Positions 2,082 to 12,030 are shown, counted from the stretch's first letter. The stretch is 12,221 nt of DNA from Gemmatimonadota bacterium (GCA_036679605.1 JAZDCZ010000088.1:1-12221), one strand, 5' to 3'. The notes: generated from the letters alone by a model not told the origin. A program made the numbers and translations.

Positions 2082-2375
2082 TCAAGCGGCGTGCAGGGGG
2101 ATACGATCGAGTTTCCGACCCATCCTGCGCCGAGCCTCTTCTAGATCAAAGTCGGCTTGCAGTCCCATCCAAAATTGTTCGGACATACCGAAATACTTGG
2201 CCAGACGCACGGCTGTGTCGGCTGTCACCGCACGCTTGCCATGCACGATCTCGTTGATGCGACGTGGCGGCACACCAATGTCACGCGCAATCCGATTCTG
2301 GCTAAGGCCCATGGGTTCGAGAAACTCTTCGAGCAGGACCTCACCGGGATGGATGTTCCGTAGTTTCTTTGCCAT
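2082..2375 (-). CDS. higA: HigA-family antitoxin (XRE HTH)
   Basis: IHPGEVLLEEFLEPMGLSQNRIARDIGVPPRRINEIVHGKRAVTADTAVRLAKYFGMSEQFWMGLQADFDL is the canonical HigA/VapI signature. It lies directly downstream of a higB-like gene. Confidence 0.95.
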   Translation of the reverse strand: MAKKLRNIHPGEVLLEEFLEPMGLSQNRIARDIGVPPRRINEIVHGKRAVTADTAVRLAKYFGMSEQFWMGLQADFDLEEARRRMGRKLDRIPLHAA

Positions 2376-2380
2376 GGTTA

Positions 2381-2668
2381 TTACCCCTTGTGATAATCGA
2401 CGATCTCAACCGCAAAGGCATCGCCGGTTTCCCACTTGAAACAGATGCGCCACTGGTCGTTGATCCGGATACTCTATTGACCCTTACGTCTGCCTTTCAG
2501 TGCCTCCAAACGGTTGGCAGGCGGCACCCGAAGATCGGAAAGCGTCCGGGCGTTGTTCAGCATACGGAGCTTTCGGCGGGCTACGTTCTGGATGTCGGCT
2601 GGTAGCCGTTGAGCACGCTCGCCTCGCCAAATCGACTCGGCCCGATGGCCCCGGAAATCTCGTATCAT
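2381..2668 (-). pseudogene. higB: HigB (RelE-fold) toxin interrupted by an in-frame TAG at 2474-2476
   Basis: Reading through the stop gives MIRDFRGHRAESIWRGE...[65 protein letters not shown], with TAA at 2381-2383. This is a full-length HigB; the TAG replaces the aromatic/His residue of the GQ[YHW]SIRIN motif. Confidence 0.9.
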
Positions 2669-2673
2669 CAAGT

Positions 2674-2711
2674 ACTATAACGATGCGCGTTATATGACGC
2701 AATACGTTATA
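2674..2711 (-). promoter_or_regulatory. Sigma70-type higBA promoter overlapped by two palindromic operator-like sites; probably leaderless
   Basis: Minus strand reads TTGCGT (2702-2697), N17, TATAGT (2679-2674), then ACTTG and the ATG, with no SD. Palindromes TATAACG-N5-CGTTATA (2676-2694) and TATGACG-N5-CGTTATA (2693-2711) cover the -10 and -35 boxes. Confidence 0.75.
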
Positions 2712-2730
2712 GATCAAATCAGATCGTTCA

Positions 2731-2771
2731 AAGCGGCTCTGCACACCTGCCCTGTAGAACACCGATCCACC
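2731..2771. repeat. Direct repeat, copy 1 (partner at 4253-4293); 18-bp exact core GTAGAACACCGATCCACC
   Basis: Exact match 2754-2771 = 4276-4293. It extends without gaps to 41 bp with 32 identities (hand count). Confidence 0.8.
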
Positions 2772-2858: not shown

Positions 2859-2972
2859 CGTGCCACCCGCCTCCTACCTATACAGTGGCTCCGAACAGGC
2901 AAAAGGTCACACGTGGGGGCAACCTAGTATACTCTACACCAGTCAAACTCAATGGCTCACAACGAGTTGCGT
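2859..2972. repeat. Diverged ~115-bp regulatory-region duplication (partner at 7484-7596)
   Basis: Hand alignment gives about 86/115 identities. It covers the start codon, SD, ECF-like promoter and upstream blocks (GGCAA, ACACC, TCAA, ATGG, CAACnAGTTGCGT). Confidence 0.85.
2884..2911 (-). promoter_or_regulatory. Putative ECF promoter copy A (orphan; followed by an SD and an 8-aa ORF)
   Basis: TGTGACCTTTTGCCTGTTCGGAGCCACT matches the consensus TGTGACCTTT-N12-GCCACT. Confidence 0.75.
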
Positions 2973-3002: not shown

Positions 3003-3091
3003 CTTCTACCTTCTGGACGGTGCGTATATTTCCTAGAGGTCTGAAGGATGGCCTGAGAACACGAGTCACCCGCGCTACAGGAGGAACCATA

Positions 3092-3325
3092 GTGCAGCAT
3101 ACTGTTAACGCTGTGATCCGGCCCGGCGAGCAATCAGGCTATGTGGCCGAATGTGTCGAACTTTCCGTGGTCACCCAAGGTTCTACTCTCGACAGAACTG
3201 TGGCGAACCTGCAGGAGGCTGTGAGCCTGCACCTGGACGGTGAGGATCTGGCCGACTTCGGCCTCGTGTCACCAGTTTCAATAGTCGCCACGCTTGAGAT
3301 AGCTCCGGCGGTCGGTGCCGCGTAG
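3092..3325 (+). CDS. hicB: HicB-family antitoxin (short form, 77 aa)
   Basis: GTG at 3092 follows an AGGAGG SD. MQHTVNAVIRPGEQSGYVAECVELSVVTQGSTLDRTVANLQEAVSLHLDGED matches the HicB partial RNase H fold (GYVAEC..L..VTQG.TL.E...NL.EA..L.L). Confidence 0.88.
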   Translation: MQHTVNAVIRPGEQSGYVAECVELSVVTQGSTLDRTVANLQEAVSLHLDGEDLADFGLVSPVSIVATLEIAPAVGAA

Positions 3326-3440
3326 GCTGCGGCGGCTCGACGGTGCGGAGGTTGTCCGCATTCTCGAAGCATTGGGATTTGCCGTTATCTCGCAACGCTG
3401 CCCCGAAAGCCGCTCCTCAGCTTTGCGCTCTTTACGGTGA
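3315..3440 (+). pseudogene. hicA: Truncated HicA toxin (homology ends at about 3398)
   Basis: GTG at 3315 overlaps the hicB end: MPRRLRRLDGAEVVRILEALGFAVISQR|CPESRSSALRSLR*. The first 28 aa match the HicA N-terminus (L..L.G.EV.R.LE.LGF....QR). The GSH motif expected next is absent. Confidence 0.82.
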
Positions 3441-4238
3441 CCGCCTGGACCACACTACGATAACCCCACACCTGGCGTCGCTACCGGCGAATTCCCCCGG
3501 CACGCTCGATGGCGTGTAGACCTCAATTGCTTCCAAGTCGGACGGAAATAGCACTACATCCGGTCCCAGGTCGGAAATACCATCGATCTTGCCGGTCCTT
3601 ACACCGTCCCAATACAACTGCGGTACACAACTCGTACCAGTTAAGCCTCCAAAACCTCTCATTCGTACACTGGATTGCCTTCCTCCCAAAGAGACGATCC
3701 GCACGCCATGCATAAGTCGAAGAAGGCTGGTAAACCGATTCACGCCCTTTTCTTCGATCTGTTCACGCGTCAAGAAATGGCCAAGACCGCGTCGCTTCCG
3801 ATCGTAGAAGCCCTGCAGCGGCCCAGGTGCAAACCTCTCCCTTTCTGCCGTCACTGTAACGGTCTCGAGCATCTCGATCGGCTTCTTCTTGGAGACTCGC
3901 ATCTGAATGTCGAGGATCTCGCCGTCCACAAGTTCAAACACTGACGTAACCAACTTCGCGTATAATGAGGCGTCCGCCCGTAGTGTGTATTTGCCGGGGT
4001 CTAGAGCGAGAAGGGAGAAGACACCATTCGAGTCGCTAATCGCACCACCCCGCATCCCTCCTTTTTCATCGAGCAGCATCACAGACACAGCACCAACGGG
4101 CCGTTCAGTACTGTCGTCTACCACGGTCCCGTAAATCGTCTGCTGGGCGCTAGCCGCAGGCGGAGTCAGCAGGACAAGGCCCCCGGTGAGCACACCGATA
4201 AGCAAACGGCGAATCACGCTGTCTTTTGTCTCGATCAT
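3432..4238 (-). CDS. Secreted protein with a carboxypeptidase-regulatory-like domain and a TonB-receptor plug-like domain, no beta-barrel
   Basis: Signal peptide (ASA|QQ). IYGTVVDDSTERPVGAVSV...SDSNGVFSL...PGKYTLRA is the CarboxypepD_reg-like part. LETVTVTA, FLTREQIEE and DLEAIEVY...CGVIVVWSR form the plug. The protein ends right after the plug. Confidence 0.85.
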   Translation of the reverse strand: MIETKDSVIRRLLIGVLTGGLVLLTPPAASAQQTIYGTVVDDSTERPVGAVSVMLLDEKGGMRGGAISDSNGVFSLLALDPGKYTLRADASLYAKLVTSVFELVDGEILDIQMRVSKKKPIEMLETVTVTAERERFAPGPLQGFYDRKRRGLGHFLTREQIEEKGVNRFTSLLRLMHGVRIVSLGGRQSSVRMRGFGGLTGTSCVPQLYWDGVRTGKIDGISDLGPDVVLFPSDLEAIEVYTPSSVPGEFAGSDARCGVIVVWSRRSP

Positions 4239-4252
4239 TAGAGGTATCCTTT

Positions 4253-4306
4253 AAGCAGTCCTACACGCATACCTGGTAGAACACCGATCCACCATGAGAT
4301 GTTACC
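4253..4306 (-). promoter_or_regulatory. Possible second ECF-type promoter (GTAAC-N18-GTT) upstream of the plug gene; contains repeat copy 2
   Basis: Minus strand GGTAAC ATCTCATGGTGGATCGGT GTTCTA, about 40 bp upstream of ATG 4238. The AAC..N18..GTT geometry is typical of ECF promoters. Confidence 0.4.
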
Positions 4307-4477
4307 GGCAGGCGTGCAATCGCAGCGAATTGCGCCCAAGGGCAGGGCGTGCCGACAAGGCTCGTAGTAGGGCGTCTGTTGGCAAAAACCAGACAGGAAG
4401 GGTGAGGGGCGACACCTTCGTCTCTTCAGACCGTCAATCCGTCCATCTGCAGTCACAGAGACCGATCCCGCTACACT

Positions 4478-4705
4478 CTAGTCAGGAATTTCCTGGCACG
4501 GAACGGTTACGCAAGAATAACCGTTAAAGTTGCATTCTTCGAAATTGAACGAAACATCACATCCGAAAGCGCCACAATGTGACCAGTTGCATTGATGGCT
4601 GGCTTCTGCCGGCTCCGGGGAGCTGAGTTCTCCGGCCACCAGACCCAACAGAACGACTAGGGTGGCAGCCAAAGTTTTTGTCCAGATGCTTTTCATGGTA
4701 TGCAT
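4478..4705 (-). CDS. Secreted six-cysteine peptide precursor (75 aa)
   Basis: AAGGAG SD upstream. Signal peptide ends PAEA|. Predicted mature 40-mer SHQCNWSHCGAFGCDVSFNFEECNFNGYSCVTVPCQEIPD has spacing C-x4-C-x4-C-x8-C-x6-C-x4-C. Confidence 0.85.
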   Translation of the reverse strand: MHTMKSIWTKTLAATLVVLLGLVAGELSSPEPAEASHQCNWSHCGAFGCDVSFNFEECNFNGYSCVTVPCQEIPD

Positions 4706-4784
4706 GGTATCTCCTTAGTATGTGTGGTGAAGTTGCGCCCCTCAGCGCCTTCCAGAAAAAAGGTTGTGTCCAGTGTGTGTGTTT

Positions 4785-5438
4785 TCACCTGCCTTCCGGC
4801 AGCACAGCGCCCGAATCGGCCCATTCTACAATTGCTTGACGGCCTGGCTTGGTTACCAGAAGCAGTCGATCCCGCTCACCGAAATACAGTTCGTCAGTAC
4901 TGTCCTTCGGAGCCACATAAAAACGCTTGTAAACCAGCACCTGCGGGGTCATCGGCTCGGTAGTATCGTCGGACCAGAGGTACCGCGCCGCGAAGGTGTT
5001 GCCCCAGTTGTAGCCGGCCGATATTTCGTCGAAGCGGCCGAACTTCGTGAGGTGTTCGAACCCCAGCTCAGGTGACCAGTCGAGAGCGACGCCGACGGCT
5101 TTGAACGACCATCCACGTTCCTTGGCATATTTCGCGAGCTGCAACTTGATCGATTCGACCGCGTGCGGCAGCCCGGGCGTATTCGACCACCCGCAGGTGG
5201 AGCTGCCCACGTATGCCATCACCAGTTGTGGACCATTCTCACGTCTGTAGCGCGGGATGTATTCCGACTCTGGGTCCAGTTCGTGAGGGCTGCGATTGAG
5301 CGCAAACTCGACGTCGTAGCGCCGAGCAAGCGTGAAGCCGCTTCCGAGCAAGATGATGACAAGCGCGAACTGTAGAATGCTGCTGGACGTAAGAGACCCA
5401 ACCTGTGAGTGTGCGCGCGATCGTATCCCTTTGAACAT
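4785..5438 (-). CDS. Membrane-anchored thioredoxin-like protein with CxxS (single Cys)
   Basis: AGGAGG SD overlaps the upstream stop. TM helix ILQFALVIILLGSGFTLA, then strand LVMAYVG followed by SSTCGWS, a long helix, strand FKAVGVALD and a cis-Pro-like MTPQVLVY. The fold assignment is by pattern only. Confidence 0.7.
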   Translation of the reverse strand: MFKGIRSRAHSQVGSLTSSSILQFALVIILLGSGFTLARRYDVEFALNRSPHELDPESEYIPRYRRENGPQLVMAYVGSSTCGWSNTPGLPHAVESIKLQLAKYAKERGWSFKAVGVALDWSPELGFEHLTKFGRFDEISAGYNWGNTFAARYLWSDDTTEPMTPQVLVYKRFYVAPKDSTDELYFGERDRLLLVTKPGRQAIVEWADSGAVLPEGR

Positions 5439-5446
5439 GGCACCTC

Positions 5447-6580
5447 CTACTTGGTGAGTGTCAGAACCCTAGCCATCGGGAACGGAGTTTCGTCGGCCGC
5501 GACCACGGTATTCAGGCCCGACCCGAGAATGAGCGGAAACCCGTCACCGAGATACATGCCGCCGGGCCGGTCTAGCCCAATGAGAAACGTGTGCAGCTGA
5601 GCGAATGCCTCCCTGCGCTGCCAGACCCTGCGTGTCACTAGTGCTACCTGAAGTACGACTGCAGTCTGGTCAGCCACCGGGACGAGACGCATTGAGGCGT
5701 GGTAACCTCCCTGTGGAATTCTCAGTTCCGATCCCCTTGTACCCATTGCGATTAGTTCAACTGGCTGGAAGCCATCGATCTCGAGCAGCCACAGCATGTT
5801 GCCGGCTGCGTTGTAGGCCCGAACTTCCGGTAGTGCCCAGGGCGCCAGCAACAGCACACCCGCCTCTTCGAGGCAAGCGATCCGTCCCATGGAGAGCTGC
5901 TCTTGCACGATTCGATTCTCGGTTCGGTAGACCTCGGCGAACGAGTCGAGTGGTTCACCCACGAGTGTATACGACCGGATCGTATAGCCTTGCTCGAGGC
6001 TCGTAGCATGGAGGTAGAGTCGGCCGTTCATAATGCAACCGTCATGGATCCCAACACCGATCTCAAACATGCGCAGGAAACTGATCGAATCCGGTCCGGC
6101 GTCGAAGATGCTTACCCTGCCGCGCGCCTCTAACACGTACAGCCCGCCATCGGGGCCCAATTCAACGGCACGTGGATGTGCGAACTCACCCGGGCCAAGC
6201 CCGGCACGCCCAACCACTTGTAGTAGGGCGCCATCCTCATCGAACATCCGCAGGGTGCGGTCCTGTGAATCGAGGATGATCAGGCGGCCATACGAATCGA
6301 ACGCTACATCCTCGATTTTCCCGAAGACCTGTTCGCGCGGACGATCCATGACACCGACGCGCAACTGTGGCGACGCCGAACGTAGACGATTTGCTAGTTC
6401 TTGGAGCCCTGACGGCGCATGGGCGGAAGAGTCACCGATTGTCACGCTGGCCGATGGAACCGCCGGATGAACGAGACCTTCGGCAATCGGATGCCGCTGA
6501 TTGGTAGGTTCCGAGAAATGTGAACACGCCGTCACGACGAGTGCACAAATGGCTATGCCAACGTGGCGATGGCTCTTCAT
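5447..6580 (-). CDS. 6-bladed beta-propeller (NHL-like) lipoprotein
   Basis: Lipobox-like LVVTA|C. Blade motifs FGKIEDVAFDSYGRLIILDSQDRTLRMFDEDG, VGRAGLGPGEFAHPRAVELGPDGGLYVLE. Confidence 0.88.
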   Translation of the reverse strand: MKSHRHVGIAICALVVTACSHFSEPTNQRHPIAEGLVHPAVPSASVTIGDSSAHAPSGLQELANRLRSASPQLRVGVMDRPREQVFGKIEDVAFDSYGRLIILDSQDRTLRMFDEDGALLQVVGRAGLGPGEFAHPRAVELGPDGGLYVLEARGRVSIFDAGPDSISFLRMFEIGVGIHDGCIMNGRLYLHATSLEQGYTIRSYTLVGEPLDSFAEVYRTENRIVQEQLSMGRIACLEEAGVLLLAPWALPEVRAYNAAGNMLWLLEIDGFQPVELIAMGTRGSELRIPQGGYHASMRLVPVADQTAVVLQVALVTRRVWQRREAFAQLHTFLIGLDRPGGMYLGDGFPLILGSGLNTVVAADETPFPMARVLTLTK

Positions 6581-6646: not shown

Positions 6647-6674
6647 AGTGGCATCGAACGGGCAAAAGGTCACA
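6647..6674 (-). promoter_or_regulatory. Putative ECF promoter copy B (propeller, CxxS Trx, 6-Cys peptide unit)
   Basis: TGTGACCTTTTGCCCGTTCGATGCCACT. Confidence 0.8.
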
Positions 6675-6721: not shown

Positions 6722-7378
6722 TCACTGTGCAAAACCCAGCAATTCTTCCAGCTCCACCAGCGAGAGGCTGCGCGACACGAGCCCCTGTTTGTGGACGAAC
6801 GTGGGCGTCCCGCTGATCCCGAGGCGCCGTGCCAATGCCATGTCGCCCGCCAAACGCGCGGCGGCCGCCTCGCCACCCAGACATCGCGAGAACTCTTCAA
6901 GATCGTCCACGCCGGCCGCTTCAGCCTCCCGTACCCAGTTTGGATCTTGCTGCCACTCGGTCGTTTGGAAGAGCTGACGATGCATCGCCTGGAACCGTCC
7001 TTGAGCCTCGGCACAAATCGCTGCCAGGGCGGCGCCCTCAGCAGCTGCATGAAACGAGAGCGGAAAATGACGGTAAACCACGCCAACCTCCGGGTGCTTC
7101 GCGAGTAGCCGCTCGACGGCCGGGGCCGATCGTCGGCAGAAGGGACATTGGAAGTCAGAGAACTCCACCAGCCGAACACTAGCCGCGCCACTATCGAGTC
7201 GGTGACCACCCGCACTCAACGCGGGCCACTGCTCGGCGATCTGATTGCGGATCCGTGTCTCCGCTCGCCACTTCGTAATCGCGTTGCCTAGCAGACCATT
7301 GGGTCCCAGCAACACGAATCCAAGGGCGCCGACGATCAGCACGTTGACCGACCCATTCAATGCTCCGGCCAGCTTCAT
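6722..7378 (-). CDS. Membrane-anchored DsbA-family thiol-disulfide oxidoreductase
   Basis: GGAGGAG SD and N-terminal TM. Motifs VRLVEFSDFQCPFC, VYRHFPLSFH and LGISGTPTF (cis-Pro). A second Cys pair in the helical insert (AAIC, SRC) resembles BdbD-type DsbAs. Confidence 0.93.
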   Translation of the reverse strand: MKLAGALNGSVNVLIVGALGFVLLGPNGLLGNAITKWRAETRIRNQIAEQWPALSAGGHRLDSGAASVRLVEFSDFQCPFCRRSAPAVERLLAKHPEVGVVYRHFPLSFHAAAEGAALAAICAEAQGRFQAMHRQLFQTTEWQQDPNWVREAEAAGVDDLEEFSRCLGGEAAAARLAGDMALARRLGISGTPTFVHKQGLVSRSLSLVELEELLGFAQ

Positions 7379-7507: not shown

Positions 7508-7535
7508 AGTGGCTCCCAACAGGCCAAAGGTCACA
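7508..7535 (-). promoter_or_regulatory. Putative ECF promoter copy C (DsbA-like gene)
   Basis: TGTGACCTTTGGCCTGTTGGGAGCCACT. Confidence 0.8.
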
Positions 7536-7684: not shown

Positions 7685-7712
7685 TGTGACCTTTGAAGCA
7701 CTGGAGGCCACT
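7685..7712 (+). promoter_or_regulatory. Putative ECF promoter copy D (peptide 2 and propeller lipoprotein unit), divergent from copy C
   Basis: TGTGACCTTTGAAGCACTGGAGGCCACT. The spacer is unrelated to the other copies but the boxes and spacing are identical. Confidence 0.8.
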
Positions 7713-7835: not shown

Positions 7836-8054
7836 ATGCACTACCCACTACGCAAACTCATACTCGTGACCGCGGCTATTGTCGCCCTGTCCGCATTACC
7901 CCTGGCAGTCACGGAGTCGGAGGGTCGAGTTTCAATCGGTGTCAGTGACGCATGCGCTCAGGGTGGTTTCTGCTGTCGCCACGAACAGGGTTCGCTGTGC
8001 CCCAGTAGCATACCGGATGGGCAGCCCAAGGGTGACTACACGCCTTGTGGCTAG
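7836..8054 (+). CDS. Secreted cysteine-rich peptide precursor (72 aa)
   Basis: GGAGG SD (7825-7829) precedes ATG 7836. MHYPLRKLILVTAAIVALSALPLAVTESEGRVSIGVSDACAQGGFCCRHEQGSLCPSSIPDGQPKGDYTPCG has basic n- and hydrophobic h-regions and a C-terminal CC-x7-C-x15-C. Confidence 0.82.
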   Translation: MHYPLRKLILVTAAIVALSALPLAVTESEGRVSIGVSDACAQGGFCCRHEQGSLCPSSIPDGQPKGDYTPCG

Positions 8055-8114: not shown

Positions 8115-9230
8115 ATGGGGACAGTCTTCATGCAATGTAGGTGCACTCTGCGCCGGGTCCGTCTCGCGTGGAGCCTTTCATTGCTAGCGCTGCTCACCCA
8201 TGCGTGCGGTAGCGAGTCAAGCAGCGGGCTACGGTACGGACCGGCTGAACTCGATCACACCGCCGTTGGAGTCATTGACGCCAAGAGCGAGATCCTCTTC
8301 GAGTCGGACACCCTGGCGCTTCCCTCTGACATAGCGGTCGTAGGCGACAACGTGGTTGTCATAGACAATGCCAATGAGCCTGCCGTATTCGTTGTAGACA
8401 GAACAAGTGGAGAAGTGCTGCGTGCGATCGGTAGACGTGGAGACGGCCCTGGCGAGTTCCGGCAGCCCTGGACTCTCGACGCTGTTTCGGGCAGCACGTC
8501 GGAGGTTTGGGTCTACGACTTGGCATTGGGCAGGCTCACGAAGCTGGACGTAACCACATCGGAAGACTCCGCAGACAGCAAGATCGTTACTCTTCAAAGC
8601 AACGGCGCTGCAACGGGTCCGATATGGACCGATGCCAACACGATCGTGAGCCTGGGGCTCTTCGCGACCGGCCGCCTGGCCGTGTTCAACGTGGACGGCG
8701 AGCGGATGGACACTTTTGGAACGGTCCCGCTCGGCCCGCCGAACGTCCCAGCAACGGTGAAGCAGCACGCCTATCAGGCGACACTGGTTCCACATCCCGA
8801 GCGACACCTACTGGCAGCAGTCACGAGACACGCCTCCCGCATCGAGTTATATCGGTCCGACGGCTCGACCGTCGCCATGCTCGACGGCCCTTTGCCATTC
8901 GAACCCCGCTACAGCGTCCGCTCGACAGCAGACGTACCTGTCCTTAAGACCGGCGATGACCTGCGCTTTGGCTACATCGATGGCGCGGGCACCAACAAAT
9001 ACCTGTTCGCGTTGTTCTCCGGCAGGACACGCGAGGGATTCCCCGGGCGTGCAAACTTCGCAAGGTTCGTACACGTATTCAATTGGAATGGCACCTTTGT
9101 GAAAGCCCTTCGCCTGGACCACGACGTGCTGAGCATCGCCGTGGACAGGGAGTCAACGACTCTGTACGCCGTTACGCACGATCCGACACCGGCAATACTG
9201 CGCTATGCTCTATCCGATCTCGTACCGTAG
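8115..9230 (+). CDS. TolB-like 6-bladed beta-propeller lipoprotein (BF3164-like)
   Basis: Lipobox-like LLTHA|C. Motifs PSDIAVVGDNVVVID, IGRRGDGPGEF, GTNKYLFALFSG, VHVFNWNGTFVKALRLD, SIAVD....LYAV. Confidence 0.87.
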   Translation: MGTVFMQCRCTLRRVRLAWSLSLLALLTHACGSESSSGLRYGPAELDHTAVGVIDAKSEILFESDTLALPSDIAVVGDNVVVIDNANEPAVFVVDRTSGEVLRAIGRRGDGPGEFRQPWTLDAVSGSTSEVWVYDLALGRLTKLDVTTSEDSADSKIVTLQSNGAATGPIWTDANTIVSLGLFATGRLAVFNVDGERMDTFGTVPLGPPNVPATVKQHAYQATLVPHPERHLLAAVTRHASRIELYRSDGSTVAMLDGPLPFEPRYSVRSTADVPVLKTGDDLRFGYIDGAGTNKYLFALFSGRTREGFPGRANFARFVHVFNWNGTFVKALRLDHDVLSIAVDRESTTLYAVTHDPTPAILRYALSDLVP

Positions 9231-9256: not shown

Positions 9257-11416
9257 TTAGGAACCGTCTTCTGCCACATTCGTACCGGTAGGCACGCCCA
9301 GCGCCTCGAGCACGCGCACGATTCCATCCAAAGAGTTCTCGGACAGCCGTATGCGACTCGATCTATCCAGCACCAGGTAAAGCGGTGTTTCCCACAAACC
9401 GAGCGCGTCGCGTGCCTTCCCATCCACCTGAAAAAGTCTCGGTGCGGACGGATGCTGTTGCACGAAACGGTGGAGGCCTGGGGACTGTGACTCCGCCGTC
9501 AAGATCAACACCCGAACCCCGCGTGATTCATAGCGGGCAGTGACTTCCTGCAAGCGCGGCAGTTGATCGAGACACGGGGCGCACAACCAGGACCAGAACG
9601 CCACGAGCGTAACTTGGCCGCCCACGAGTTCGTCTAGCCTATAACTTGCACCCGCCGAGTCGGTCAACTCCACGCCGCCGGGCACAAAGGTGTTGCTCGT
9701 GCCTGCCAGAACGCGCTCGTACATCTCGTTTCGTGCGACCCTCTTCAGCTCTGTCCATCGAGCGCCGTTCACAAGACCGGTCGCCAGCGCCGCAAGCGAA
9801 TCCCGGGCAGCAGTCGTGGTATTCGGGTCGACCGCCAGTCTGGCCAACATGCCAACCGCACCGGCCGTATCGGCAATGCCGAGCCTTACCTCGGCCGATA
9901 CCCCAAAGACCTCCGTATCCCAGCCGGCCGCCGCCTGGTCCAGAGCGTCGAGACCGGCATCGGTGTCGCCCAACTGCACCAGCGCCCTACCTAGCGGTGC
10001 GAGAACTCGGCCACGCTCCGCCTCGTCGTAGCGCCGCTGCTCTGCGGCGGTGCGAGTCAGAGGCCGTCTCCAGCCGGCATCGGTGTCAGCGCGTGCCAGT
10101 GCACCACGCAGCCGCTCTACAGCGACCCTTCTCAATTCCGGCACCTCGGCCAGTTGCTTCGCTACGGCAAGTGCCGCCCACGGTTCCAGCGCCACGCGGC
10201 GGTCGGCCCATCGCAGTATCGCGTCCGGGTTTCCCGCCCGCATTGCCACAGAAAGCGCCATCAGAGGCAGCTGGAAGGAGACTGGGCCAACCTCTTGCCA
10301 CAGCCCTTCCAGTTCCCGCAGCGCACCAGCGCGATCGCTCCCATGTGCGGCTATGATCCGAAAGACACGTTGTTGCACTGCCTGAGGATGGCCCGGTGCT
10401 TCACTTAGCAGCCTGTCCCGCCAGTAATCAACCTTTTCCGGACCTTGCTCTGCGATGAATCCCAGCCAGTACAGTCCCGCCAACGTGTCACCGCTAAGCG
10501 ATATTTCATTGGTGAACCGGCTATGCAACTCCTCGTAGCGCGCTCTCCAACGTCCAGAGAAATCGGTCACGCCGCGTGATTGGTATAAATTTTCCTCGAA
10601 CCCCGCTAGTCGCGACCAGGCATTGGGATTGTCGGGATATAGCTCGGTGGCCCGTCTCGCAGCTTCCAGTCCTCCTTGCCAGTTTCGCTCGCTCAAATCG
10701 TTTTGTTGCTGCACCAACGCGCGATAATCCGGCTCCTCGCCATTGAAGACCAGAAGCTCCCACAACGCACGACGGTTGCTGTCAACTCGCGCACCCAGCG
10801 TATCCTCCACCGCGAATACCGCGTACACCACCGAGTCGGGAAGCTGAACGGTGCCCTCGAATTTCCCGCGTCCAACTTTGTCCAGCTGGCCCACCACAAT
10901 CTGTCGGGCACCCGGATTGTACTCCCGATCGGTGGCCATTCTGTAGCGAGCGCGGAGCACCAGCCGATCTTCGCCCGCGAGCATCGAGGTACTGCGGTAC
11001 TCCACAGCAATCAGATCGCCGCGCTCGGGCTTCTCGGGTGTCAAGATCAACTCTCCCGACATCCGCTCGGCCCCCAAGTCCGGAAGCGAGCGAACCATGA
11101 GAGCGCCTGCGCCCACCAGGGCAACCAGCGCGGCGGCTATCATGCCCAGTCGTTTGGGCAGCGCCGGAAACGGGTCGGACAACGGTAGCACCACCCGCTC
11201 TCCCGCCGCACGCCGCGCCAGGACGCGTTCTAAGATCTCCACGGGCGGTTTCTCGTCCGGCAATGATCTGAGCCGCTCGTCCAAATCCCGAATCGATACA
11301 ACCTTGCGCCGGCACACCGAGCAGCCGGCCAGGTGATCGGCTACCCGCGCACGCTTCTTACCCGCCAATTCGCCGGCGGCGAAGTCACATAGTTTCGAGA
11401 AAGAGACGTGTCCCAT
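9257..11416 (-). CDS. Transmembrane anti-sigma factor: ZAS (zf-HC2), TM, extracytoplasmic TPR-like region, C-terminal TlpA/redoxin domain
   Basis: N-terminal H..(GHVSF)...HLAGCSVC (HxxxCxxC). TM LGMIAAALVALVGAGALMV. TPR-like AARRATELYPDNPNAWSRLA and LGRALVQLGDTDAGLDALDQA. C-terminal GQVTLVAFWSWLCAPCLDQLPRL...LWETPLYLVLD. The ATG directly follows the sigma stop (TAGATG). Confidence 0.87.
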   Translation of the reverse strand: MGHVSFSKLCDFAAGELAGKKRARVADHLAGCSVCRRKVVSIRDLDERLRSLPDEKPPVEILERVLARRAAGERVVLPLSDPFPALPKRLGMIAAALVALVGAGALMVRSLPDLGAERMSGELILTPEKPERGDLIAVEYRSTSMLAGEDRLVLRARYRMATDREYNPGARQIVVGQLDKVGRGKFEGTVQLPDSVVYAVFAVEDTLGARVDSNRRALWELLVFNGEEPDYRALVQQQNDLSERNWQGGLEAARRATELYPDNPNAWSRLAGFEENLYQSRGVTDFSGRWRARYEELHSRFTNEISLSGDTLAGLYWLGFIAEQGPEKVDYWRDRLLSEAPGHPQAVQQRVFRIIAAHGSDRAGALRELEGLWQEVGPVSFQLPLMALSVAMRAGNPDAILRWADRRVALEPWAALAVAKQLAEVPELRRVAVERLRGALARADTDAGWRRPLTRTAAEQRRYDEAERGRVLAPLGRALVQLGDTDAGLDALDQAAAGWDTEVFGVSAEVRLGIADTAGAVGMLARLAVDPNTTTAARDSLAALATGLVNGARWTELKRVARNEMYERVLAGTSNTFVPGGVELTDSAGASYRLDELVGGQVTLVAFWSWLCAPCLDQLPRLQEVTARYESRGVRVLILTAESQSPGLHRFVQQHPSAPRLFQVDGKARDALGLWETPLYLVLDRSSRIRLSENSLDGIVRVLEALGVPTGTNVAEDGS

Positions 11417-11977
11417 CTATTTGGTTCCTTCGAGCAACTCGAGCATGAGAGCCTTCGCTCGCAGCAACCTCATTTTCGAGCCGCCCACGGTTATTCCGAG
11501 CATGCTCGCGATCTCCGAATGCGAATACCCCTCGACGACGCTCATCACGAGCACCGCTCGCAACGAATGCGGCACGCGTGCCAGTGCTCGCTCGAGCGCG
11601 ATCCGCGCTTCGTGCTCCGGCGGTTCCTCAGCCACGGCGGACAGCGGAACGTCGTCAAGGGGAACCTCGGCCCGCCTTCTGGACGAACGGTTTACCCTAT
11701 AGGCGGTTCTGTATGCCACCGTTTTGATCCACCCCTCGAGACTGCCCCGGCCTGTGTAACCTCGCAAAGCTCGAGGCAGGACCATAAAGACGTCCTGAAC
11801 AACATCACTCGCATCGTCACGACACTGTGCAAGTTTGAGCGCTACACCGAAAACCATTGCTCCGAAACGCTCGAAGAGTTCAGTCAAGGCCTCCGGTTCG
11901 CCCGACCGCGCCCGCCTCAGGAAGGCCGGCGATTCCAACCGGTCAATTCTGTCCATCACGGCCGGCGACGTCGCCAT
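11417..11977 (-). CDS. ECF-subfamily sigma-70 factor
   Basis: 186 aa. Region 2 is ARSGEPEALTELFERF...DDASDVVQDVF...SLEGWIKTVA. Region 4 is LRAVLVMSVVEGYSHSEIASMLGITVGGSKMRLLRAK. GAGAGG SD upstream. Confidence 0.95.
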   Translation of the reverse strand: MATSPAVMDRIDRLESPAFLRRARSGEPEALTELFERFGAMVFGVALKLAQCRDDASDVVQDVFMVLPRALRGYTGRGSLEGWIKTVAYRTAYRVNRSSRRRAEVPLDDVPLSAVAEEPPEHEARIALERALARVPHSLRAVLVMSVVEGYSHSEIASMLGITVGGSKMRLLRAKALMLELLEGTK

Positions 11978-12002: not shown

Positions 12003-12030
12003 AGTGGCCACGAAGGAGCAAAAGGTCACA
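12003..12030 (-). promoter_or_regulatory. Putative ECF promoter copy E (autoregulatory, 25 bp upstream of the sigma ATG)
   Basis: TGTGACCTTTTGCTCCTTCGTGGCCACT. Confidence 0.82.

Follow-up and report, generated by a model that had tools for sequence, protein, structure and literature searches.

Architecture of a candidate membrane anti-sigma factor

The stretch of DNA analysed here, hereafter the window, comprises 12,221 nucleotides from Gemmatimonadota bacterium (GCA_036679605.1, JAZDCZ010000088.1:1–12221). Its minus strand carries a 719-residue open reading frame (ORF) at 9257–11416 that abuts the stop of an ORF whose product is a sigma factor of the extracytoplasmic function (ECF) type, at 11417–11977. 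The longer protein is a candidate membrane-bound anti-sigma factor with zinc-associated anti-sigma (ZAS), tetratricopeptide repeat (TPR)-like and thioredoxin-fold parts, and it is accompanied by genes for a small cysteine-bearing peptide and a beta-propeller. The features of these four genes are as follows.

11417–11977, minus strand: ECF sigma factor, 186 residues, abutting the anti-sigma start (Pfam Sigma70_r2 and r4_2; NCBIfam sigma70-ECF; synteny)
9257–11416, minus strand: membrane anti-sigma candidate, 719 residues, with zinc motif, transmembrane helix, all-beta domain, TPR-like helices and TlpA/ResA fold (Pfam and NCBIfam, AlphaFold2 model, structure search)
11267–11410, minus strand: ZAS-type anti-sigma domain, residues 3–50, with H3, H28, C32 and C35 (Pfam zf-HC2; conservation; profile match to ChrR, 2q1z)
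11093–11149, minus strand: single predicted transmembrane helix, residues 90–108 (hydropathy 2.41)
10751–11056, minus strand: seven-stranded all-beta domain, residues 121–222, without a Pfam family (AlphaFold2 model)
9704–10726, minus strand: TPR-like helical repeat region, residues 231–571 (sub-threshold Pfam TPR; paired helices in the model; structure search)
9290–9697, minus strand: ResA/TlpA-fold domain, residues 574–709, with the motif ETP at the cis-Pro position (Pfam, NCBIfam, profile and structure searches)
9572–9583, minus strand: CAPC motif, C612 and C615, a minority state in the family (sequence; homologue counts below)
8115–9230, plus strand: TolB-like six-bladed beta-propeller, probable lipoprotein, conserved partner (Pfam TolB_like, E 9.8e-20; orthologue linkage)
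7836–8054, plus strand: 72-residue signal-bearing peptide with five cysteines, from an odd-cysteine family linked to the anti-sigma and without a Pfam family (profile search, linkage)

The zf-HC2 match of the N-terminal domain lies above the Pfam cut-off (E 3e-05), and the domain is modelled by AlphaFold2 as three helices (residues 6–13, 19–31 and 33–50), with HLAGCSVC occupying residues 28–35. The HxxxCxxC motif is kept in all 142 homologues aligned there and H3 in 143 of 144. Exactly one N-terminal hydrophobic segment is present in 144 of 164 family proteins; in the window protein 611 residues follow it, and this large C-terminal part is predicted to lie outside the cytoplasm. The predicted topology, with the N-terminus inside, is based on the helix itself, on lysine and arginine counts, and on the zinc-less homologues, which begin with signal or lipoprotein-like peptides. 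A positive-inside bias is seen in the family (K/R excess before versus after the helix in 115 of 142 homologues), but not in the window protein, where the two flanks carry 2 and 2.

The AlphaFold2 model, calculated from 21 homologues, has a mean predicted local distance difference test score (pLDDT) of 85.2 and a predicted template-modelling score of 0.75, with low confidence for residues 74–118 (the helix and its linkers). It places seven strands at residues 122–222, paired helices at 231–571 and a thioredoxin fold at approximately 574–709. Conserved residues of the all-beta domain include Y140, R155, E204, D212 and W219, and its look-alikes in the Atlas are unnamed. Structure searches returned TPR proteins such as OGT and SPY. 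For the C-terminal domain, an AhpC-TSA/Redoxin match spans residues 583–690, and the fold search returned ResA, TlpA and DsbE (Z-score of 16.6, with 2.3 Å root-mean-square deviation over 134 aligned residues for ResA, 2f9s); the NCBIfam ResA and TlpA models score the protein under their cut-offs. Both FWSWLCAPC and ETP are present, and the W-x-x-x-C-x-x-C pattern is intact. A prediction made earlier from the window (hereafter, the original prediction) had named this same order of motifs, a zinc motif, one membrane helix, a beta-rich domain, TPR-like helices and a redoxin, and had described the sequence correctly. The Pfam TPR matches are under cut-offs, so that 'TPR-like' is the proper term.

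Distribution of the family

A search of 50%-identity representatives returned 409 proteins at E<=1e-30, and the majority of the 150 listed are full length. Fifty family loci were found in the genome collection, all from Gemmatimonadota wherever the title gives a group (three titles give none). Within the window's phylum, 58 of 401 sampled genomes hold a match at E<=1e-20, 40 of them at E<1e-50. The window's own assembly contains four full-length copies (100, 86, 47 and 33% identity); as it is larger than most of its relatives and carries 6.3% contamination, some of the four may stem from co-binned strains. Two genomes are flagged as unpublished, one supplying a single row of the locus tally and one of the 14 promoter-positive genomes described below (L017/G403), the other a single short match (G157); no conclusion hangs on them.

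The fusion described in the original prediction is genuine, and it is also widespread. That it arose by chance joining of anti-sigma and redoxin genes through assembly or annotation has a negligible probability: the contamination of the assembly might be held in its favour, as might the fact that among the public contigs listed none singly spans the ORF (contigs of run X1 jointly cover all 30 bins), but full-length homologues from many independent sources refute it and a search restricted to shorter proteins returned 1 match.

The first 55 loci contain 57 family-matching ORFs. The pairing with a sigma gene that had been proposed is borne out, since 36 of the 38 ORFs with a zinc motif have a sigma gene immediately upstream and the other two begin at a contig edge. 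The remaining 19 are made up of ten sigma-linked forms in which the zinc motif is absent, three forms with a signal peptide, four fragments and two redoxins that are unrelated. The ten sigma-linked forms (L009, L011, L013, L022, L038, L041, L046, L049, L052 and L053) have a shortened N-terminus lacking HxxxCxxC, and eight of them retain the promoter before the sigma gene.

Separately, zinc-less, signal-peptide-bearing homologues of the outer module, often with CxxC, adjoin genes for BlaR1 (M56) and BlaI together with arrays of six-bladed propellers (L036, L042, L050 and L067–L078). Of twelve zinc-less homologues that begin with a signal or lipoprotein-like sequence, six have CxxC and four have CxxS, the site being uncovered in two. 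Atlas look-alikes of the outer part are Bacteroidota redoxin proteins of 590–650 residues (score 0.96, given with no alignment). These sequences make it probable that the outer module occurs by itself in the envelope as well; the family tree is unrooted and does not give the direction of change.

A predicted promoter motif shared by the sigma and peptide operons

A repeat search of the window revealed a 31-nucleotide element present several times. The pattern TGTGACCTTT-N13-CCACT, drawn from these copies, has five exact matches in the window and none in 200 shuffles.

12003–12030, minus strand: promoter before the sigma gene, predicted to be sigma-dependent, TGTGACCTTT-N13-CCACT (pattern match, as for the four below)
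7685–7712, plus strand: promoter copy before the peptide–propeller operon
7508–7535, minus strand: promoter copy before the DsbA-like gene
6647–6674, minus strand: promoter copy before the second propeller cassette
2884–2911, minus strand: fifth promoter copy, facing a toxin–antitoxin remnant and genes for a resistance-nodulation-division (RND) adaptor and TolC

With one motif standing before the sigma gene and both peptide cassettes, the feedback layout suggested in the original prediction is indicated. The family form of the promoter, TGTAAC-N16-GGCAT, was found de novo by a Gibbs search of 35 sigma upstream regions. A matrix was built from 32 sites, three weak ones being omitted; in leave-one-out scoring, 31 of the 32 lie above the null's 99th percentile. 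The same matrix detects sites before the sigma gene in 8 of the 10 zinc-less sigma-linked loci, none of which was used in training. The exact family pattern is found in 14 of 29 genomes that have the family (among them 6 of the 9 outside the training set) and in 0 of 20 genomes without the family, all 20 of which belong to one taxonomic family; a reversed-pattern control gave 1 match in 49 genomes. From the position of these sites, it appears that the sigma factor reads them.

The −10 element differs from module to module within the window's assembly: CCACT for the window (five copies, with two more on contig C212, at a frameshifted sigma gene), CCCCT on C357 (three), GCACC on C294 (four) and GGCAT on C13 (one). 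Thirty promoter-pattern loci were inspected by eye, of which 12 precede a family sigma gene. The other 18 lie before genes for PAS kinases and response-regulator-like proteins, one GGDEF protein, one RND adaptor resembling that of the window and one ABC ATPase, or before unclear ORFs; among them no gene for a thioredoxin, Msr or Dsb protein was recognised by eye. A scan of the whole assembly with the matrix was noisy (101 sites at a score of >=13.5, against 28–130 with column-shuffled matrices) and was set aside, so that only exact, locus-linked sites are used here.

The peptide and propeller partners

A member of the peptide family is present in 15 of the first 55 loci. The number of cysteines, counted after a conserved proline, is odd in all 43 distinct peptides found near a propeller (33 with five, 9 with three and 1 with seven); the profile that picked them was itself made from peptides of this kind, a bias towards the three core cysteines but not towards any parity of the remaining ones. 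A Pfam search with the odd-cysteine peptides returned no family, and the peptide folded alone gives a low-confidence model (pLDDT 62.7). A likeness to the NVEALA proteins of Bacteroidota was considered and is unsupported: there is no Pfam match, and the genome search was uninformative, with no match even in the controls.

Orthologues of the propeller (E<=1e-35) occur in 26 of 401 genomes, namely 22 of the 40 with a long family match versus 4 of the 361 others, counts that are not independent as 19 of the 26 genomes belong to one taxonomic family. Most of these orthologues adjoin the anti-sigma gene, with the peptide gene between or beside them. The peptide gene lies downstream in the direction of the sigma operon, or has its own promoter copy (5 loci).

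Degeneration of the redox site

Redox-site counts were made on an alignment of 164 proteins, 158 of which cover the site. The CxxC of the window protein is shared by 12 of the 158, three of them from the window's assembly, while CxxS is found in 62 and CxxA in 52. The first cysteine is present in 129 of 158 and the second in 13, and 150 of 162 retain the proline at the cis-Pro position (P678, in a TP motif). Of the 164 proteins, 148 are free of cysteine between residues 112 and 600. For 36 peptide-linked anti-sigmas in which the site is covered (4 rows were skipped), 25 are cysteine-free there, 6 have one cysteine and 5 have CxxC.

The original prediction had suggested that the sensor, with its intact CxxC, may read envelope disulfide status or bind or reduce the cysteine peptides of the locus, and had named a lack of CxxC conservation beforehand as one of the outcomes that would refute it. 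The motif is absent from most of the family, and sensing or reduction of envelope disulfides through an intact CxxC is not supported as the working principle. The safe conclusion is that the four-gene module is retained even without any cysteine at the redox site. In the window copy the CAPC motif may be redox-active, as a local state and not as the mechanism of the family. Genes for DsbD/CcdA and VKOR are present in the window's assembly on other contigs; across loci L001–L084 and the window, a DsbD/CcdA gene is found in one locus only.

Comparison with characterised systems

By analogy, DdvA–DdvS is the closest studied system and functionally the most alike, although the window protein is not a member of it. 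DdvA, from Myxococcus xanthus, is a zinc anti-sigma with a periplasmic TPR region and an enzyme-like domain, and truncated DdvA is cut by RseP (PMC11506125). In common with the window are the ECF sigma factor, the single-pass anti-sigma with its zinc domain in the cytoplasm, the large periplasmic TPR region and the enzyme-like end domain (PMC11506125). DdvA ends in a CHAT protease domain and controls genes of CBASS (cyclic-oligonucleotide-based antiphage signalling systems) and CRISPR (PMC11506125); the window protein lacks the CHAT domain that marks the DdvA type and ends in a ResA/TlpA fold. It also has the additional all-beta domain and H-H-C-C zinc ligands in place of the C-H-C-C of DdvA, and its partners, a cysteine peptide and a propeller, are unlike those described for DdvA–DdvS. 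RsrA, with which the original prediction drew its comparison, is more distant than a membrane-bound zinc anti-sigma such as DdvA, and the RsrA-type family TIGR03988 scores the window protein at 16 bits, versus a cut-off of 62.5.

Like the class I ZAS proteins (RsiW, ChrR and RsrA), the window protein has an HxxxCxxC motif in an N-terminal helical domain and is encoded directly after an ECF sigma gene (PMC7406223). RsrA and ChrR are soluble cytoplasmic sensors (PMC7406223), whereas the window protein has 719 residues and a predicted transmembrane helix, and ten sigma-linked loci of its family, unlike class I ZAS proteins, lack the zinc motif altogether. Approximately half of the membrane-bound class I anti-sigmas carry a zinc motif, which may be structural there, and about 79% of Gemmatimonadetes ECFs are associated with class I anti-sigmas (PMC7406223). 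By prediction, the protein shares the hallmark of anti-sigmas released by regulated intramembrane proteolysis (RseA, RsiW and DdvA), a single transmembrane helix with the N-terminus inside and a large domain outside. M50 peptidases are present in the window's assembly, as they are in all 14 control genomes.

With the ResA/TlpA/DsbE reductases the family shares the fold and the cis-Pro-position proline, together with W-x-x-x-C-x-x-C in the window copy. It differs from them in its fusion to an anti-sigma, in almost never lying beside DsbD/CcdA, and in not conserving CxxC. Two predicted ECF groups could be compared by description. ECF231 has a zinc-finger anti-sigma with one helix, periplasmic helical (HEAT) repeats and a predicted −35 element, TGTAACCTT, like that of the window, but it belongs to Bacteroidetes and Acidobacteria, has another −10, and has no redoxin domain in the description available (PMC7826278). 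In ECF284 the putative anti-sigma shows some homology to AhpC/TSA, but this group is actinobacterial and has two helices (PMC7826278). The available parts of that ECF reclassification contain no group with the architecture of the window protein (PMC7826278). SOQ1 and NHLRC2, which both appear in the fold search, combine a thioredoxin-like domain and a six-bladed propeller in one chain; they are eukaryotic and not anti-sigmas, and with Z-scores no higher than those of ordinary thioredoxins they serve as an analogy only. In the open-access literature we found no paper describing a sigma/anti-sigma/peptide/propeller system.

A proposed signalling module and its alternatives

We tentatively favour a reading in which sigma factor, anti-sigma, peptide and propeller form an autoregulated module whose outer domain would sense a ligand, the thioredoxin fold acting as a binding or structural module and not as a required reductase; for the whole chain the probability is roughly 0.45. 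The sequences show that the four genes constitute a conserved module with one promoter motif. The N-terminal zinc domain very probably binds the adjacent sigma factor and, on the precedent of class I anti-sigmas, would inhibit it. Engagement of a ligand by the beta/TPR/thioredoxin part would lead to cleavage and RseP-type intramembrane proteolysis, and the sigma factor would be released by regulated proteolysis as seen for truncated DdvA. Once freed, it would raise expression of its own operon, of the peptide–propeller operon and of locally acquired genes (the DsbA and six-cysteine-peptide cassette), closing a loop that the promoter positions suggest. The outer domain is rather likely to bind its ligand without need of redox chemistry, and the retention of the module where the redox site is gone (25 of 36) is counted for a non-redox sensor. 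The most likely ligand would be the co-encoded odd-cysteine peptide or a peptide–propeller complex.

Several observations weigh against this proposal. Of the 25 cysteine-free peptide-linked copies, 16 come from one genus. Where the fetched flank of a sigma-linked copy contains no peptide (33 copies), the site has a single cysteine in 30, CxxC in none and no cysteine in 3, and this prevalence of a monothiol points to selection on the thiol; for some of these loci the cassette was later found on another contig. The link between the cassette and degeneration of the site, for which a Fisher test had given p about 0.003–0.004, was set aside, as in a tree-corrected test it rests on three independent pairs and is not significant. 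At two loci (L020 and L047) the peptide operon is convergent and no promoter was detected for it, and peptide–propeller pairs without a nearby anti-sigma are found at L122, L129, L161, L162 and L169. The peptide could also be an output only.

Some of the pairs at these last five loci are accompanied by DsbA or by tandem peptides, and one of the peptides doubles its cysteine core. Genomes of genus g88 (L130–L148) carry at least two modules, in each of which the thioredoxin fold is cysteine-free and the peptide is a divergent five-cysteine form (C..C..CxC..C). These peptides have their cysteines after LST-A-[SA]-C, a motif that approaches a lipobox without matching it.

It is possible, though we think it fairly unlikely, that the protein is a thiol sensor, in which the first cysteine of the thioredoxin fold would read the thiol status of the envelope or form a mixed disulfide with an unpaired cysteine of the peptide; CxxS and CxxA copies would trap this disulfide and CxxC copies such as the window's would resolve it. 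The conservation of the first cysteine and of the cis-Pro-position proline is supportive of this, as are the 30 of 33 monothiol copies without a nearby peptide, the odd cysteine number in all 43 peptides, the DsbA gene under the same promoter in the window, and the DsbD/CcdA and VKOR genes elsewhere in the assembly. There is also precedent in the ECF16 anti-sigmas, which use periplasm-facing cysteines (PMC7826278). However, the peptide-linked copies are the ones most often cysteine-free; the odd count is seen also in peptides without a nearby anti-sigma and may stem from an N-terminal cysteine that is lipidated or free; and neither the 18 non-sigma promoter matches, with no thiol-redox gene of the kinds named above recognised by eye, nor the single locus with an adjacent DsbD/CcdA gene favours it.

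A general envelope-stress switch is likewise a somewhat doubtful explanation. The outer domain would here respond to protein misfolding, to membrane damage or to a compound from outside, with peptide and propeller serving as outputs or as an RseB-like accessory and not as the signal. Consistent with this, the family occurs in many genomes without a detected peptide (19/71 genomes in search A2), promoter matches elsewhere precede a mixed set of genes, and the zinc-less homologues beside BlaR1/BlaI-type genes and propeller arrays suggest a separate role for the outer module. The tight linkage of the four genes across several families and repeated paralogues argues against it, and the module-specific −10 variants fit private circuits better than one general response.

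An unlikely further reading is a form of ECF-run peptide signalling in a diderm, in which each module would secrete its own odd-cysteine peptide, read it with a thioredoxin-fold receptor and drive a private promoter variant. Recognition would then be by a covalent mixed disulfide in the cysteine-bearing copies and non-covalent in the rest, and the paralogues would be insulated channels comparable to quorum-sensing pherotypes.

Predicted local targets and paralogous modules

The window contains further genes behind promoter copies.

6722–7378, minus strand: DsbA-like protein with CPFC, a local target whose place beside the family is not conserved (Pfam DSBA, E 6e-18)
3432–6580, minus strand: second cassette, local target (gene calls, Pfam; similar genes on contig C212)
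5447–6580, minus strand: propeller of the second cassette (gene call and Pfam)
4785–5438, minus strand: 217-residue protein of unknown kind, without a Pfam match (gene call)
4478–4705, minus strand: six-cysteine secreted peptide (gene call)
3432–4238, minus strand: carboxypeptidase-regulatory/Plug protein (Pfam)

The cassette of DsbA and six-cysteine peptide has been added locally, judged from its distribution: among the first 55 loci DsbA homologues are confined to the window and contig C212 (L004). The 217-residue protein is membrane-anchored, with a single-cysteine SSTCGWS and a later TP motif, and recurs after propellers on C212 and C170; it is possibly another degenerate thioredoxin fold. 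On C212 (L004, G000:C212, 3264–13290), two identical copies of the window's sigma promoter accompany a frameshifted sigma gene without an anti-sigma, together with a cassette of DsbA, six-cysteine peptide, propeller and a 209-residue protein resembling the second cassette of the window.

Other modules of the assembly likewise have genes behind promoter copies. At L002 (G000:C294, 13091–13300, plus strand) a 69-residue ORF with a long leader followed by six cysteines lies behind that module's promoter copy and looks like a bacteriocin precursor or one for a ribosomally synthesised and post-translationally modified peptide; the locus also holds an S41 peptidase-like gene and a 125-residue secreted cysteine protein under another promoter copy. 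At L001 (G000:C357, 6139–10529, minus strand) subtilisin-like protease, propeller-like and serpin-like proteins are encoded behind a third copy of this module's promoter, and the peptide of this module has a cysteine core identical to that of the window peptide.

The genes faced by the fifth promoter copy of the window include a helix-turn-helix antitoxin (Pfam HTH_3) with an apparently broken upstream partner, and a second antitoxin-like ORF with a toxin remnant (2082–2762, minus strand, and 3020–3519). These toxin–antitoxin genes, which we take to resemble HigA/HigB and HicB/HicA, sit between that promoter copy and the RND adaptor and TolC genes, and may be insertions into a sigma-controlled export operon. 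At L101 (G289:C78, 823–2324) a family promoter precedes an RND adaptor that resembles, by eye, the window gene at 663–1859, a hint that this exporter belongs to the regulon.

Significance

The family promoter, the five copies of a local variant in the window and the link to an odd-cysteine peptide are added by the present analysis. The intact thioredoxin emphasised in the original prediction is a local state, and the promoter, the peptide and the module-specific −10 variants are the stronger leads. The architecture represents an uncharacterised sensor for ECF signalling in an abundant and barely studied phylum. Since promoter and targets are now predicted and there is a candidate for the ligand, a reporter test is straightforward. 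The series from CxxC through CxxS and CxxA to cysteine-free forms within one family offers a model for how the fold of a redox enzyme turns into a signalling module. If the peptide is not the signal, the protein would be a class I anti-sigma of the usual sort, distinguished by its tail; if it is, peptide autoinduction would gain a route through ECF sigma factors, and the promoters specific to each module would make useful orthogonal switches.

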